Shown here: positions 405-47,900 of the stretch, in pieces | How the letters are laid out: each line of letters starts with the position of its first letter | Position numbering within the stretch: the first letter of the stretch is position 1 | The notes under the pieces: generated by a model | Told to the model about the DNA's origin: nothing | The model's database searches: none | The model's input: only the letters and a program-made list of their open reading frames with translations | NCBI GenBank assembly: GCA_944363715.1 | Contig: CALVUX010000008.1 | Span: 2,928 to 66,927, forward strand | DNA: 64,000 nt | Source of the DNA: an uncultured Bacilli bacterium | GTDB taxonomy: Bacteria > Bacillota_I > Bacilli_A > RF39 > UBA660 | Direction of reading: 5' to 3' | Position numbers and translations under genes: made by a program

Positions 405-758
405 AGTGTTTGCATAAATGTAATAATTATGATAAGATGTATATGTAAGAAAAATTTTCATACACTATAAAAGGAACACTTAATATTGTCGTGTTGAGTG
501 TACCTCTAATTATATTTTTGTTAGAGACACCTAATTCAATAGTTGTGAGTTAGGTGACTTTTTCTATATTAAGACTAAAAGTAGTAGCAAATTCTGAAAA
601 AGGATAATAATTACTAAAGATAAAATTAAAAAATCTTTCTTGTTCATTATTTCGACCTCCTTTCTGAGGCCACACCCAACTATTAAATGTTCCTTATAAA
701 TATAGTATCAAATTAATTTCTGTATAGCAAGAGAAAATGTAATAAATTAGTTACAAAT
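405..758 (-). repeat. Copy A of the ~355-bp type I TA-like module (reverse orientation)
   Basis: Near-identical stretches shared with 43237..43590 and 44463..44819, e.g. aaatgtaataaattagtt, ccaactattaaatgttcc, aaaaggaacacttaatatt. Hairpin cacctaa(N15)ttaggtg at 528..556. Confidence 0.8.
564..647 (-). CDS. Small hydrophobic peptide (27 aa, MNKKDFLILSLVIIILFQNLLLLLVLI); candidate type I toxin
   Basis: ATG preceded by the SD aaaggagg. Paralogous to the peptides at 43343 and 44567. Too short for the ORF track. Confidence 0.4.
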   Translation of the reverse strand: MNKKDFLILSLVIIILFQNLLLLLVLI

Positions 759-22117: not shown

Positions 22118-22119
22118 TA

Positions 22120-22458
22120 TTTTAGACAAGTGCTGGGATTAATTCCTAGAGGAAAGTCCATGCTCACACAGTCTGAGATGATTGTAGTGTTCGTGCTTAA
22201 GGAAAAAATAACTTAAGGTAGTGTTTAACACTAACGGCTTAGTCTTTACCTAAGGGTTTTCTATGGTAAAGGCTTATAAAGTGCCACAGAGACGAGTGTC
22301 TAGGAAACTAGATGAGTGAAACGCGGTAAACCCCACGAGTGAGAAACCCAAATTATGGTAGGGGAGCTTTAAGAAAAGAAATGAATTTTCTTAAGGACTA
22401 GAAATAGTAGATAAATACTTGTCACCTAGAAATAGGTACAGAACATGGCTTATTAAAT
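22120..22458 (+). ncRNA. rnpB: RNase P RNA, bacterial type B
   Basis: Conserved blocks GAGGAAAGTCCATGCTCACAC, AGTGCCACAG-GACG, AACGCGGTAAACCCC-CGAG-GAGAAACCCAAAT, GGTAGGGGA and ACAGAACATGGCTTA, all collinear with B. subtilis rnpB. It sits downstream of gpsB as in Bacillus. Confidence 0.85.
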
Positions 22459-42496: not shown

Positions 42497-43145
42497 ATGG
42501 AATTATATTTATCATCATATAGATTAGGAAATAGTCAAGATAAATTACAGGAATTGGTTATTAAATAATGGTAATAAAATACTTGTTATTCCTAATGCTT
42601 TAGATATGTTTGAAGACAATGAAAGAAAAATGCAGGGAATATTGAATAAGTGTAGTGATTTGCAAAAAATTGGTTTTGAAACTGAAATATTTGATTTAAG
42701 AAAATATTTTGGTAAAAGTGAAGATTTATATAGTGATATAAAAGATTATAAAGCGTTTTATGCATTGGGTGGTAATACTTTTGTACTAAGAACTGCGATG
42801 AAATTGAGTGGCTTTGATGAATATTTGAAAAAGATTTCTACTTTACCTGATTATTTATATTCAGGGTTTAGTGCAGGTATTTGTGTTTTAGCAAAAGATT
42901 TACATGGTATAGACTTTGTTGATGATCCTCATAAAGATCCATATAATTATGGAGAAATAATATGGGATGGAGTTGGTCTTATAGATTATATGCCTGTTCC
43001 ACATTTTGATACACCAAGTCATCCTGAATCATATTTAATGTATGATGTTGTTTCTTATTTAAAAGAAAATAATTTGCCATATATTACTATGAAAGATGGA
43101 GATGTTATTACCGTGAAAATTGATACTAAAGTTAAAAGAGTCTAG
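42497..43145 (+). pseudogene. Peptidase S51 (peptidase E-like), frameshifted near 42545..42555
   Basis: The N-terminal 23 codons (MELYLSSYRLGNSQDKLQELVIK*) are in one frame. The rest (NWLLNNGNKILVIPNA...YSGFSAG) is in another. Both parts match the peptidase E N-terminus/core. Confidence 0.6.
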
Positions 43146-43236
43146 GTATTTAGGCTCTTTTATAATAAAGTTTATATATAACATGATTATTTTCAATAAT
43201 ATAATTAGAAACTATTTTCTATTTGCGGGAATTCGC

Positions 43237-43590
43237 AACTAATTTATTACATTTTTCTTGATATATAGAAATTAATATGATACTATATTTGTAGGAACAT
43301 TTAATAGTTGGGTGGATATCTCCTAGAAAGGAGATTGATATTATGAATAGAAAAGATTTATTAATAGTCTCTTTAATCATAATTATCCTTTTACTTATAA
43401 AGTTATTATTTTTAGCGATATAAATAAAAGCCACCTAACTCACAACTGTTGAATTAGGGGCTAATCCATAATATAAAAATTTGGAGGTCCACTCAACATG
43501 GGAATATTAAGTGTTCCTTTTCATATTGTATGAATTTTTCTTACAAATATACTATATCATAGTTATTACATTTATGCAAATTTATTTTTA
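43237..43590 (+). repeat. Copy B of the ~355-bp type I TA-like module
   Basis: Collinear with copy C (44463..44819) and, as reverse complement, with copy A (405..758). Confidence 0.85.
43343..43423 (+). CDS. Small hydrophobic peptide (26 aa, MNRKDLLIVSLIIIILLLIKLLFLAI); candidate type I toxin
   Basis: SD aaaggag sits in the 3' arm of the hairpin atctcc/ggagat. Two paralogues exist in the window. Confidence 0.4.
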   Translation: MNRKDLLIVSLIIIILLLIKLLFLAI

Positions 43591-43621
43591 CTTACATGAT
43601 ATTATTTAAATAAATATAATG

Positions 43622-44344
43622 TTATGATAGACTTCTATTTGTAATATCTGCTCTTTCTCTTTGATTTAGACCATAACAACTAACTGGTGTTAAATTATTA
43701 TTCTTATCTTTTACAAAAACATCAGTAAATCTATAAAAGTTATCACTTGTATTATCGTAGAATACAAAGTTAATGTCGCCTGTACTTGTAACTAGACATG
43801 CTGTAAGTTCTGCCTGTTTAGTCTTAAACACTTGATTATCTTGATTCATTTAAATATAGCTAGTGAAATCGTCTAGAGAAAAGTTTTCACTAAAACTTCC
43901 TCTTGGGTGGGAATGTCCGTGACAGACAACAAAACCATTATATCGGTTATTATTAAGTTTATTTACTAAATCATTTCTCATATTTTCATCATAATTTGCT
44001 TCTGCTCTTTGTCTATTATCTCTTGAGCTTGATGCAATAAAACTATCAAATTCTATTACATTGTTTTCAACTTCTTTTCCATATAGGAAAAATGGTACTT
44101 CTTTTTTCTCTATATTGGTAACATCTTGTACTCCTAACAAAGATCCATATACTTCTTCACTTAATATTATTTTTGAGTTTGGCATATTATTTATAATATC
44201 AGAATTAATTGGAGTCATTTCTCCATAAGCACTATATGTATTGAAGTTTTGTTGATGGTAAGCTCCGTAAGGATTTTTATGAATCATAATGTCTTTTACT
44301 TTTTGTGAGTATTGTTCTCTAGTCATAATTATTTTTCCTTTCAA
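43622..44344 (-). pseudogene. RadC-like JAB/MPN-domain protein interrupted by an in-frame TAA (ORFs 43850..44344 and 43622..43849 abut as ...TSYI*MNQ...)
   Basis: HGHSHPRGSFSENFSLDD resembles the RadC JAMM motif HNHPSG...S..D. The two ORFs are contiguous in one frame. Confidence 0.4.
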
Positions 44345-44462
44345 TGTTTTATTAATAGTTATATTGTCAATAATTCTATCTAATAATTATTTTAGCATAA
44401 TTCTTTCATTTTCGGTATTGTATATTTAATAATAAAAAAATGATATATTTACGAAAACCTGT

Positions 44463-44819
44463 AACTAATTTATTACATTTTTCCTTGTTATCTAGAAATT
44501 AATATGATACTCTATATGTAGGAACATTTAATAGTTGGGTGGGACCTCAGAAAGGAGGTCTAGCTAATGAACAAGAAAGATTATTTGATTTTTTCTTTAG
44601 TAGTTATGTTGTTTCTTCAAGATATCTTGTTGCTATTTGCCATACTTGCTTTAAAATGAAAGAAACCGCCTAACTTACAACTGTTGGATTAGGTGGCTCT
44701 CGAAAAATAATTAGGGGTCCACTCAACATGCGAATATTAAGTGTTCCTTTTAATATTGTATGAATTTTTCTTACAAATATACTATATCATAATTATTACA
44801 TTTATGCAAATTTATTTTT
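44463..44819 (+). repeat. Copy C of the ~355-bp type I TA-like module
   Basis: See copy B. Confidence 0.85.
44567..44659 (+). CDS. Small hydrophobic peptide (30 aa, MNKKDYLIFSLVVMLFLQDILLLFAILALK); candidate type I toxin
   Basis: SD aaaggagg sits in the 3' arm of the hairpin gacctc/gaggtc. Confidence 0.4.
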   Translation: MNKKDYLIFSLVVMLFLQDILLLFAILALK

Positions 44820-45807
44820 GTATAACTAGTGATACATCTTTAAAGTAATAATTTAATATCTGTTTATAGTTATAACCTAACTCTGATAGATTATCTGCCC
44901 CTATAATACTTAGACCTAGTCCACTACCTATTCCTCTTGTTATGAAAGTAAGATAATCTTTCTTGATAATTATAGTAATGTCTGTTGAAGGTAAATCTAA
45001 ATAGACTGCTAGACTTCTGGCATCTATTTTTCTTTCTCCTAAGTCTAATTCTTTTATTCTGTTAGAGTTACTGATACTAGTAATCTTTATATTAAAATTA
45101 TCACTTTTTAGATTTAATTTTTCTTTAAAATCTTTAATACTGTAGTCTTTTCTTTGTAAATAATTAGGGTATGCTAAATCCCAGAGACTTTCTTTTTTTA
45201 CAGTATAAGGAATACTTTTATCTTCTTCGGTGTAGCCATTACTAACTAAGTGGGTAAAACATTTAATGGGTTTATTATTATTAATTAAATACTCGCCATT
45301 AGTTTCATCTATTACTTTATTAAAAATAGTAAATTTAGATTTATAAGTTTCAGGATAAGTAACTTTATAATAATTATAGTTATGATATGATAAAGATAAT
45401 TTATTTAAGTCTAAATAATTATTCTTTAGATTATAGATTATTTCTCCTCTGTATAAAACTGTTAAAGCTTTTAGAGTTTCTTCTTTTAAAGAGATATTTA
45501 TATTACATAATAATAAACTTAATAGTAGGTCTTTCATAGTCATTTTTTCTTTAGTATTAAGAGTAATTAAATAATCATTTAAGTAAGTCTTGTTATTTTC
45601 GATAGTAATCATTTTAGTACTAATACCATTTACAATAAAAACAATTTTATTACCATTAAATTTAATATCATGAGTAACTAAATAACTTCTAGCTTTCTTT
45701 TCTAAGTCATCTTCCTCTAAATCTTCACCAAATTCATAATCAACATTTAAATATAAGTATAATACTTCTTCATTATTACTTCTTGCAATTTTATAACTTT
45801 CTAACAT
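44812..45807 (-). CDS. SpoIID/LytB-domain protein (putative)
   Basis: The C-terminal RGIGSGLGLSIIGADNLSELGYNYKQILNYYFKDV resembles the SpoIID C-terminal block GHGVGMSQ.GA..MA..G..Y..IL..YY. Confidence 0.45.
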   Translation of the reverse strand: MLESYKIARSNNEEVLYLYLNVDYEFGEDLEEDDLEKKARSYLVTHDIKFNGNKIVFIVNGISTKMITIENNKTYLNDYLITLNTKEKMTMKDLLLSLLLCNINISLKEETLKALTVLYRGEIIYNLKNNYLDLNKLSLSYHNYNYYKVTYPETYKSKFTIFNKVIDETNGEYLINNNKPIKCFTHLVSNGYTEEDKSIPYTVKKESLWDLAYPNYLQRKDYSIKDFKEKLNLKSDNFNIKITSISNSNRIKELDLGERKIDARSLAVYLDLPSTDITIIIKKDYLTFITRGIGSGLGLSIIGADNLSELGYNYKQILNYYFKDVSLVIQK

Positions 45808-46821: not shown

Positions 46822-46931
46822 AGTCTAAAATCAATCCTTTCTACTTTTTAAAGTATAACATAATTTTTCATTAAATTATCATATTTTTTACATAATTTTT
46901 GTGATATAATCTATTCTAGGTGAGGAAGAAG

Positions 46932-47900
46932 ATGATAGATAAGCAGTTTAAGAATCTTGAAGAACAAATAGAAATACTTAAATATAAGGGTATGACTATT
47001 ACAGATGAAAAATATACTAAGAAGATATTACTAAGAGAAAATTACTTCTTTATATCTGGTTATAGATATCCTTTTATGAGAAGTATGACTGATAAACATT
47101 TCTTAGAAGGGGTTACTTTTGAAGAGATGTATAGTTTGTTTCTATTTGATAGAGCGATTAGAAATGTGTTCTTTAAGTATTTACTTGTTATTGAAAATAA
47201 CTTAAAATCTATATTTTCATATCAGTTATCTAAGAAATATGGATATAAAGAGAAATATTATTTGCGTAATAAAAACTTTACTAATGATAAGAATAAACAA
47301 AAACAAGTAAATGATTTGATTAAAAAGATGAAAAGACAAATTAGGATTAATGGAAGTCAACATACAGCGACTGCACATTATATGTCTAATTATGGTTATG
47401 TTCCACTTTGGATTTTAGTTAAAGTTTTATCTTTTGGAATAGTTGGAGAATTATTTTCAATAATGAAATATGATGATCAAGTAAATATTTGTAAGATTTA
47501 TAATATACCATTAGATGATTTTAGTAATTATTTACCAATACTTTCTAATTATCGTAATTTGTGTGCTCATGAAGATATTTTATATGAAAATAGAACTCAG
47601 AAGAAAATTAAAGGAACGAAGTTTCATGAGTTACTTGGTTTAGAAAAAGATGATGAAGGGTACTATACTAAAGGAACTAATGATTTATTTGCCCTTCTTA
47701 TTATAATGAAGAGAATGTTAAGTTATGATGAATTTAAAGATATGTGTTTAGAGCTTGATAAAAGAATAGATAATCTTGAATATAATTTGCATAGTATTAA
47801 AATAGATAAAATATTAGAAAAAATGGGGTTTCCTAAAAATTATATGGAACTTGCTAATATTGAGAGGAGAGATGTAGATAATGAAGTCAGAGAGAATTAA
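46932..47900 (+). CDS. Abortive-infection protein, Abi_2 (AbiD/AbiF/AbiD1) family
   Basis: Family hallmarks: EQIEILKYKGMTI, YFFISGY, FLFDRAIRN, IENNLKS, YVPLWILVKVLSFG and the invariant YRNLCAHED. An extended -10 TGaTATAAT lies upstream at 46903..46910. Confidence 0.75.
   Translation: MIDKQFKNLEEQIEILKYKGMTITDEKYTKKILLRENYFFISGYRYPFMRSMTDKHFLEGVTFEEMYSLFLFDRAIRNVFFKYLLVIENNLKSIFSYQLSKKYGYKEKYYLRNKNFTNDKNKQKQVNDLIKKMKRQIRINGSQHTATAHYMSNYGYVPLWILVKVLSFGIVGELFSIMKYDDQVNICKIYNIPLDDFSNYLPILSNYRNLCAHEDILYENRTQKKIKGTKFHELLGLEKDDEGYYTKGTNDLFALLIIMKRMLSYDEFKDMCLELDKRIDNLEYNLHSIKIDKILEKMGFPKNYMELANIERRDVDNEVREN

Follow-up and report, generated by a model that had tools for sequence, protein, structure and literature searches.

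Is a short RNA hairpin that encloses the Shine-Dalgarno sequence (SD) of a small hydrophobic, toxin-like peptide a selected block to translation or an accident of base composition and, if it is a block, to what kind of system does it belong? The question is raised by three homologous modules of ~330 nucleotides (nt) in a 64,000-nt stretch of metagenome scaffold (ENA ERZ28614922; G+C content 27.9%), referred to here as the window and numbered from its first letter: module A (- strand, ~400-760), module B (+ strand, 43230-43590) and module C (+ strand, 44450-44815). Each contains a 6-bp hairpin with the SD (GGAG or GGAGG) in its 3' arm, 7-9 nt upstream of the ATG of a short hydrophobic open reading frame (ORF). 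What follows argues that the hairpin is maintained by selection, that it probably withholds the SD from ribosomes, and that the module around it has the look of a type I toxin-antitoxin locus.

The SD hairpin and its covariation

A preliminary description of this DNA had placed hairpins with the SD in the 3' arm in all three copies, and direct reading of the sequence agrees (Table 1). It had also pointed to compensatory base changes among the three copies, and on this point the evidence is thinner than was claimed. With the copies aligned on the SD, the sole true double substitution is at U43319-A43334 of B, which is C-G in both other copies; a further pair differs on one side only (A-U in C, G·U in A), and the other differences between B and A or C are stem ends shifted by one position. 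Folded singly, the 5' untranslated regions (UTRs) return the SD hairpin with modest z-scores (-1.2 for B, -3.0 for C and -3.0 for A).

Relatives of the module supply the larger sample. Species-representative genomes were searched with the 5' block AACAYTTAATAGTTGGRTG (at least 119 loci) and metagenomes with an independent anchor, the terminator hairpin plus CACTCAAC (at least 120 loci); all family counts given here are drawn from the matches listed in these two scans, which place the module in at least 119 species-level genomes and at least 120 metagenome contigs. The listed genome-scan loci hold 153 module copies by nhmmer, up to four of them in tandem and 127 near full length, and the listed metagenome loci yield 76 unique full-length modules, 74 of them new.

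One alignment, made with MAFFT from 23 diverse 5' UTRs, took no account of structure. Standard pairs make up 75.8% of the 13-pair helix of the SD hairpin in it, and 35-58% once the 3' partner is slid over 1-3 columns. Double-sided changes are seen in six pairs, and the covariation score, 0.279, exceeds that of shuffled alignments (0.166±0.017; none of 500 reaches it). With a covariance model built from these 23 sequences, 120 copies from the genome scan were aligned, of which 109 are distinct; the fraction of paired cells is 77.2%, 11 of the 13 pairs have changed on both sides (145 cells), and the score is 0.312, against 0.144±0.007 for shuffled and at most 0.069 for slid alignments. The same model applied to 60 distinct metagenome sequences gives 70.7% paired cells, 10 of 13 pairs changed on both sides and a score of 0.200, against 0.124±0.006 (shuffled) and at most 0.073 (slid). 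An alignment-free comparison of 29 hairpin types leads to the same place: the mean pairing energy of a 5' arm is -11.35 kcal/mol with the SD arm of its own type and -8.80 kcal/mol with those of other types, a preference for the own arm that is reached by 0 of 20,000 permutations. RNAalifold, given the model-fitted alignment, predicts a two-tier SD hairpin unaided. When MAFFT is given whole mRNAs, the SD is displaced by one column from one subfamily to another; column-by-column counts on that alignment were therefore set aside for the SD hairpin in favour of the covariance-model alignment and the alignment-free test.

The hairpin comes in several forms. The window copies have simple stems of 6-7 bp; most relatives have two tiers, UUGCC-AAA-CUUC-loop-GAAG-GGA-GGCGA, and others a continuous SD stem of 10-12 bp, ACCUCUAUCU...AGAUUGGAGGU. 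The three middle pairs are open, with AAA facing GGA, in ~60% of the 109-sequence set and ~75% of the 60-sequence set; in most members only the last two G residues of the SD and the 3-4 bases that follow are paired, beneath a covarying upper stem. The preliminary description had looked to additional homologues for covariation as a sign of a selected, SD-sequestering RNA structure. Over ~170 distinct homologues it is there, and indicates that the SD hairpin is real and evolutionarily maintained.

The long-range helix and the second partner of the anti-SD arm

Folding of the full-length mRNAs of the window (B, -70.1 kcal/mol, z -7.0; C, -64.3, z -4.0; A, -59.6, z -6.2) yields a helix of 21-23 bp that links first and last nucleotides: the first 21 nt of the mRNA pair with its last ~30 nt. 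Of 113 members, 106 are predicted to form this helix, and its two halves are 98.7% and 99.4% paired in 111 sequences. The metagenome set, whose search pattern left the 5' end free, shows 97.6% pairing and 12 double-change cells, where shuffled sets have 1.8±1.2; changes pass by way of G·U, as at one pair that is UG in 38, UA in 22 and CG in 16 sequences. A conventional local terminator for the toxin mRNA was considered and set aside, suggestively only, because the local 3' hairpins, at a median of -4.3 kcal/mol, are weak beside the 5'-3' duplex at -32. Together with the U-run that follows it in 118 of 118 modules, the long-range helix may also be the terminator stem of the mRNA.

The arm that faces the SD in the hairpin (the anti-SD arm) lies just 3' of the conserved 5' block and is also complementary to the 3' UTR bases just before CACUCAAC, so that the long-range helix can extend into it. 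On the unfitted alignment this extension is 79.5% paired, with five of its seven pairs changed on both sides; it has a cognate preference of its own (-6.54 against -5.10 kcal/mol; 0 of 20,000 permutations), and no such preference is seen when, as a control, the SD arm is paired to the 3' segment in the same test. Combinations of arm, SD side and 3' UTR include UGCC/GGCG/GGCA (25 sequences), UACC/GGUG/GGUA (11) and UGCC/GGUG/GGCA (10). Both pairings use the same arm bases, and the SD hairpin and the helix extension are therefore alternatives. In the minimum-energy folds, A and B keep the SD hairpin stacked on the long helix; in C the arm pairs with the 3' UTR.

Opening the segment from SD to AUG costs 7.3-10.1 kcal/mol in every modelled state, each of which is strongly closed. 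The cost is 8.7 kcal/mol in the free full-length mRNA and 10.1 with the 3' UTR masked; it is lower in the free form in 86 of 113 members (6.6 against 11.4 for copy C).

Anatomy of the module

In order, the family layout is a promoter, a conserved 5' end, the SD hairpin, the hydrophobic ORF and a 3' UTR covered by a convergent antisense gene. The promoter is of the sigma-70 type, and its -10 element ends 6-7 nt upstream of the conserved GGAACA in 76 of 116 modules; the spacing between the -10 element and GGAACAUUUAAUAGUUGGGUG implies that the conserved block starts at, or within a base or two of, +1. The 5' block pattern occurs three times in the window against an expectation of 0, and the block may also form a weak local hairpin. 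At the other end of the mRNA a T-run follows GTTCC in every one of the 118 modules.

The ORF has 26-33 codons (27-residue consensus MNKKDFLILSLVILIFLLVLLLFIVLI; 85 distinct variants, in frame). Its product begins with a conserved M-x-K-K-D, after which comes a stretch made up entirely of hydrophobic residues; the charged patch (KKD) is N-terminal, and there is no charged tail. Codon-position entropies of 0.83, 0.37 and 0.99, with the second position most constrained, are as expected of a coding sequence for a hydrophobic peptide; gene callers leave it unannotated. Searches of Pfam, NCBIfam, PADLOC and PHROGs profiles with the peptide give nothing meaningful: up to E = 10, Pfam and NCBIfam offer no family except CD225 (0.04, judged spurious), such profiles being weak on low-complexity peptides of 27 residues.

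Two features lie within the ORF. Codon 15 is ATC in 85 of 111 members, ATT and ATA being the usual isoleucine codons elsewhere in the ORF, and codons 15-17 (window positions ~43385-43393 and 44609-44617 on the + strand, 605-597 on the - strand) hold a CUUCC or UCCUU motif in 84 of 111. This CU-rich stretch pairs with the SD in many full-length folds and may be a second, ORF-embedded anti-SD like that of aapA3 (discussed below); tried as a covarying second anti-SD it was rejected, with no cognate preference (-8.80 against -8.92 kcal/mol). Just 3' of the start codon, in codons 4-9 (~43352-43369 and 44576-44593 in the window; columns 89-102 of alignment A7), RNAalifold places a 5-bp AU-rich hairpin, (A/G)GAUU-UUUU-AAU(C/U)(U/C), whose closing pair is A-U in 35 and G-C in 17 sequences; it could be real, or it could reflect linked codon changes between subfamilies.

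The evidence for an antisense gene starts directly 3' of the stop codon, with a G+C-rich hairpin, CCACCUAACUCA...UGAAUUAGGUGG. A U-run accompanies this hairpin on the antisense side in 111 of 111 modules and on the toxin side in 1 of 111, which argues that it terminates the convergent RNA and not the mRNA. Opposite-strand promoters that score at least 9/12 are found in 104 of 117 modules, 91 with an extended TG; their family form is TTGAYA or TTGCAT, a spacer of 17-18 nt, and TATGAT or TATAGT. From these signals an antisense RNA of ~120 nt is predicted to span the whole 3' UTR and to end at the toxin stop codon. Relative to the 5' block, the 3' block, CACUCAAC-(7 nt)-UAUU(G/A)A(A/G)UGUUCC, is an inverted repeat. 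Being complementary to the 3' UTR, the predicted antisense RNA carries a near-copy of the first ~30 nt of the mRNA, anti-SD arm included.

The module ends have repeats of their own. An 11-mer, TTATTACATTT, of which 0.47 copies would be expected, is present exactly six times in the window: at 416-426 and 735-745 on the - strand and at 43244-43254, 43563-43573, 44470-44480 and 44793-44803 on the + strand. Every module is bracketed by a pair of them, equally oriented and separated by ~320 bp; one member of the pair lies upstream of the toxin -35 element and the other within the spacer of the antisense promoter. A shared operator is one possible explanation, and the junction between units of a former tandem repeat is another. 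In the conserved flank just upstream of the module B promoter is a small hairpin, TTGCGGGAATTCGCAA (43223-43238, + strand); its equivalents are TTACGAAAATTTGTAA in A and TTACGAAAACCTGTAA in C, and these hairpins are terminator-like by scan.

Table 1. Features of the three modules in window coordinates, with strand and basis of assignment
Module	Feature	Position	Strand	Basis
B	Toxin-mRNA promoter, TTGATA-17-TACTAT, upstream TG	43258..43286	+	Consensus scan
B	Predicted toxin mRNA, from G of GGAACA to U-run after GUUCC	43294..43521	+	Ends predicted from promoter spacing and T-run
B	Conserved 5' block GGAACAUUUAAUAGUUGGGUGG, 5' strand of long-range helix	43294..43315	+	Pattern scan, pairing
B	SD hairpin, AUCUCC (43318-43323), loop UAGAAA (43324-43329), GGAGAU (43330-43335); ATG at 43343	43318-43335	+	Sequence, folds, family covariation
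B	ORF, 26 residues, MNRKDLLIVSLIIIILLLIKLLFLAI	43343..43423	+	ORF list, family comparison
B	3' UTR partner of the 5' end: GGAGGUC, alternative partner of the anti-SD arm; CACUCAAC ... UAUUAAGUGUUCC, 3' strand of long-range helix	43483..43517	+	Folds, pairing tests
B	Predicted antisense (antitoxin) RNA, ~119 nt, complementary to toxin 3' UTR	43426..43544	-	Signals; ends predicted
B	Antisense promoter, TTTGCA-18-TATAGT with TG	43580-43551	-	Consensus scan
B	Antisense terminator hairpin	43458-43434	-	Terminator scan
C	Promoter, TTGTTA (44485-44490), 17-nt spacer, TACTCT (44508-44513)	44485-44513	+	Sequence
C	Predicted toxin mRNA	44521..44751	+	Sequence, fold
C	SD hairpin, GACCUC (44543-44548), loop AGAAAG (44549-44554), GAGGUC (44555-44560); ATG at 44567	44543-44560	+	Sequence, 5' UTR fold
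C	ORF, 30 residues, MNKKDYLIFSLVVMLFLQDILLLFAILALK	44567..44659	+	ORF list
C	Predicted antisense RNA	44656..44774	-	Promoter scan, sequence, family statistics
C	Antisense promoter	44810-44781	-	
C	Antisense terminator hairpin	44696-44666	-	
A	Promoter, TTGCTA (730-725), 17-nt spacer, TACTAT (707-702)	730-702	-	Sequence
A	Predicted toxin mRNA	469..693	-	Sequence, fold
A	SD hairpin, GGCCUC (671-666), loop AGAAAG (665-660), GAGGUC (659-654), one G·U (G670·U655); ATG at 647-645	671-654	-	Sequence, folds
A	ORF, 27 residues, MNKKDFLILSLVIIILFQNLLLLLVLI	564..647	-	Sequence, family comparison
A	Predicted antisense RNA	445..565	+	Terminator scan; ends predicted
A	Antisense promoter, TTGCAT (410-415), TAAGAT (433-438)	410-438	+	Read from sequence
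A	Antisense terminator hairpin	528-556	+	

Hosts and genomic surroundings

The hosts among the matches listed are nearly all metagenome-assembled genomes of uncultured gut 'Bacilli', 'Tenericutes' and 'Mollicutes', Candidatus Onthousia included, from samples of rabbit, goat, reindeer, chicken, sheep and human origin. There is no evidence of carriage by plasmids or phages in the collections searched (blastn of module C against plasmid and phage collections gave no match, and two pattern scans of IMG/VR found no module); the loci are chromosomal. Some copies look decayed: ATG has become ATA at locus L032 and CTG at L023, the SD has gone from GGAGG to GAAAG at L087, 7 nt of the ORF are deleted at L018, and the second copy at L034 is of this kind.

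In the window, modules B and C flank a two-gene cassette (43622-44344, - strand) that encodes a 164-residue protein, which has an HGHSHP motif and weakly resembles JAB domains (PADLOC, E = 0.003), and a 75-residue protein with no match. At locus L100 (4074-4913) a B-type and a C-type copy lie ~53 nt apart with nothing between them, so that the cassette looks like an insertion between tandem copies. An Abi_2 (abortive-infection-like) protein is encoded ~2 kb from module C (46920-47900, + strand; Pfam, E = 2e-41). Farther off is a bacterial class B RNase P RNA (22118-22457, + strand; 288.7 bits), consistent with a Bacillota host. A peptidase S51 gene (42497-43145, + strand) is apparently split into a 23-residue ORF (MELYLSSYRLGN...), a stop codon at 42566-42568 and a main ORF from 42606; it is either a pseudogene or an assembly error.

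Weighing the evidence

The likely reading of these facts, one that we hold with some confidence, is that the hairpin acts in cis to block translation of the mRNA for a small hydrophobic toxin-like peptide, part of a type I-like module. For this reading, covariation among three copies in the same genome would, alone, be weak and thin evidence. A number of observations weigh against it. The family alignments that were fitted to the covariance model are biased towards the structure of that model, and RNAalifold on the raw MAFFT alignment returns an invariant 5' hairpin only and no SD hairpin, a failure ascribed to the mixture of hairpin types and to register shifts. In most members GGA, the first three bases of the SD, sits in the 3x3 internal loop of the predicted hairpin, and what the structure offers is partial occlusion. 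Full-length minimum-energy folds pair the SD fully with the 5' arm in 25 and partly in 29 of 113 members, and the remaining folds often pair it with the CU-rich coding stretch. The measures of accessibility disagree: the mean unpaired probability of the SD is 0.16 in the free mRNA and 0.26 with the 3' UTR masked, which is opposite to the trend in opening energy. Finally, all hosts are uncultured, and what is said of transcripts, toxicity and mechanism rests on sequence and folding.

The other explanations fare less well. That stems of 6 bp which include a purine-rich SD should arise by chance in AT-rich DNA has in its favour single-sequence z-scores as modest as that of copy B; covariation in ~170 homologues, measured against controls, and a cognate test reached by none of 20,000 permutations refute it, and its probability is now close to nil. 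A more substantial proposal holds that the 5' arm is conserved only as an extension of the long-range helix, for mRNA stability or termination, with complementarity to the SD a by-product that has no translational role. The pairing of arm with 3' UTR does covary, it is more often strictly Watson-Crick than the pairing with the SD side (the combination UGCC/GGUG/GGCA, with G·U on the SD side and G-C on the 3' side, is the case in point), and 63 of 113 full-length folds have five or more bases of the arm paired to the 3' UTR. Yet the upper stem of the hairpin has no 3' UTR partner and still covaries strongly (CG 59, AU 17, UA 14; UA 55, CG 22); the cognate preference is greater for arm with SD (2.5 kcal/mol) than for arm with 3' UTR (1.4 kcal/mol); and wherever an arm base is A, its SD-side base is always U. 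With these constraints, the by-product proposal is quite improbable.

The peptide itself is the subject of another objection, that it is a harmless small membrane protein or a non-toxic regulatory peptide under antisense control, the hairpin merely tuning its translation. Its toxin status is read from its sequence, it has no match to known toxin families, and the loci are chromosomal, with none found in the plasmid, phage and viral collections searched. The feature set as a whole, which is to say a tiny hydrophobic peptide, tandem copies, a convergent antisense, an mRNA closed 5' to 3' and an occluded SD, nevertheless fits type I toxin-antitoxin loci as described (PMC8594479, PMC6733600), and decayed copies that have lost a start codon or SD occur, as expected of dispensable selfish modules. 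A harmless peptide is accordingly regarded as unlikely.

A proposed mechanism

As a translational block, the hairpin would act early. The anti-SD arm is transcribed before the SD, and the hairpin would shut the ribosome site on the nascent RNA; translation would be blocked during transcription, before the 3' UTR that the antisense targets exists. The target of the antisense is the last part of the mRNA to be transcribed: a nascent SD hairpin would solve that problem. The same nascent-RNA logic has been demonstrated genetically for aapA3 (PMC6733600). On the finished RNA the 5'-3' helix would form and could extend into the anti-SD arm, loosening the SD hairpin. Binding of the antisense to the 3' UTR would create a duplex of ~120 bp, by analogy with Bacillus subtilis systems a likely substrate of RNase III; it would also free the 5' UTR and give the arm back to the SD. 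The peptide that is kept from being made in this way is presumed to be toxic to the membrane.

The three pairings may make up a switch. In such a three-partner RNA switch the arm would pair with the SD (closed) or with the 3' UTR (loosened), and the antisense, a mimic of the mRNA 5' end, would act by strand displacement: it would take the 3' UTR from the 5' UTR and hand the arm back to the SD, in addition to forming the RNase III duplex. This remains a tentative proposal, possible and on the doubtful side.

These findings add a well-defined, unannotated toxin-antitoxin-like RNA module to those on record. The family is large and exceptionally rich in information for comparisons of RNA folding. 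A covarying SD hairpin, a 5'-3' clamp and a competing third pairing together make a comparative model for the silencing of toxin mRNAs during and after transcription, and the covariance model and sequence patterns can be used to annotate such loci in gut metagenomes.

Comparison with known systems

The preliminary description had called translational occlusion of this kind typical of type I toxin mRNAs, and rightly: type I loci are described as having SD/anti-SD occlusion of the primary transcript among their major hallmarks (PMC6733600, PMC8594479), and 5'-3' long-distance interactions and transient, co-transcriptional SD hairpins have been described in their toxin mRNAs (PMC6733600). Its placement of the three mRNAs in a type I toxin-like context holds as far as the anatomy goes. 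The locus has the hallmarks in its sequence: a short hydrophobic ORF, a convergent antisense gene (by sequence signals), a 5'-3' helix, multiple and tandem copies, and a transcript that SD/anti-SD pairing would make poorly translatable (in silico). Toxicity, transcripts, mechanism and antisense control are what we infer from these.

Known RNA models and toxin profiles do not recognise the module. Thirteen Rfam families represent type I antitoxin RNAs (PMC8594479); a scan of the whole window with Rfam at gathering thresholds returns RNase P only, and a permissive E-value scan of 43150-44900 returns nothing relevant. Profiles for Fst/Ldr, Hok and other toxins in Pfam and NCBIfam do not match the peptide. 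In the literature searched, string searches for the peptide and for the 5' block give no match, and topic searches give no description of the module family.

In layout the module matches the Gram-positive type I loci as summarised in PMC8594479. Among the closest is the Bacillus subtilis group of bsrG/SR4 (with txpA/RatA, bsrE/SR5 and yonT/SR6), in which a convergent antisense likewise overlaps the 3' end of a hydrophobic toxin mRNA that has its SD in a short helix. When SR4 binds the 3' end of bsrG mRNA, the SD helix grows from 4 to 8 bp, and decay is promoted as well (PMC3834814); the switch proposed above would resemble this effect. Masking the 3' UTR of the module raises the energy of opening in the 86 of 113 members noted, with the unpaired probability moving in the opposite direction. 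Unlike members of the bsrG group, the module has a predicted antisense restricted to the 3' UTR, with its end at the stop codon, an mRNA closed by a 21-bp 5'-3' helix, an anti-SD arm with a covarying second partner, and a peptide of 26-33 residues with an N-terminal KKD and no charged tail.

Closure of the mRNA is shared with aapA/IsoA of Helicobacter pylori and hok/Sok of enterobacterial plasmids, which have a 5'-3' lock on the primary transcript, short SD hairpins that show covariation and are proposed to work co-transcriptionally, and CU-rich anti-SD stretches in the ORF (PMC6733600); the corresponding helix of the module is of 21 bp and 97.6-99.4% paired. In aapA and hok, the antisense is directed near the 5' region or at the ORF and activation proceeds by 3' trimming, whereas the antisense unit of the module lies wholly downstream of the stop codon and targets the 3' UTR, helix strand included. 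The hosts also differ (Proteobacteria or Campylobacterota there, Bacilli here), and the peptides are unrelated.

Fst/RNAII and SprA1/SprA1as are like the module in that the antisense does not overlap the ORF. In par a 5' stem-loop occludes the fst ribosome site, and direct DNA repeats make the 5' ends of the two RNAs complementary. The 5' and 3' blocks of the module are inverted repeats, and direct repeats of the par type are not found in it; the 5' half of its antisense has the same sense as the mRNA 5' UTR, and is a mimic of it rather than a complement. A further difference from par is the terminator U-run, present in the module on one side only. Fst/RNAI-RNAII (par of pAD1) and SprA1/SprA1as are both described as convergent genes with no overlap of antisense and ORF (PMC8594479).

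Inverted repeats, a 3' antisense, a KKD peptide without charged tail and the absence of a model or profile match place the module outside the known systems. It is apparently an undescribed module family, in practice a new family of the type I kind, and the SD hairpin itself is what would be expected of that class.

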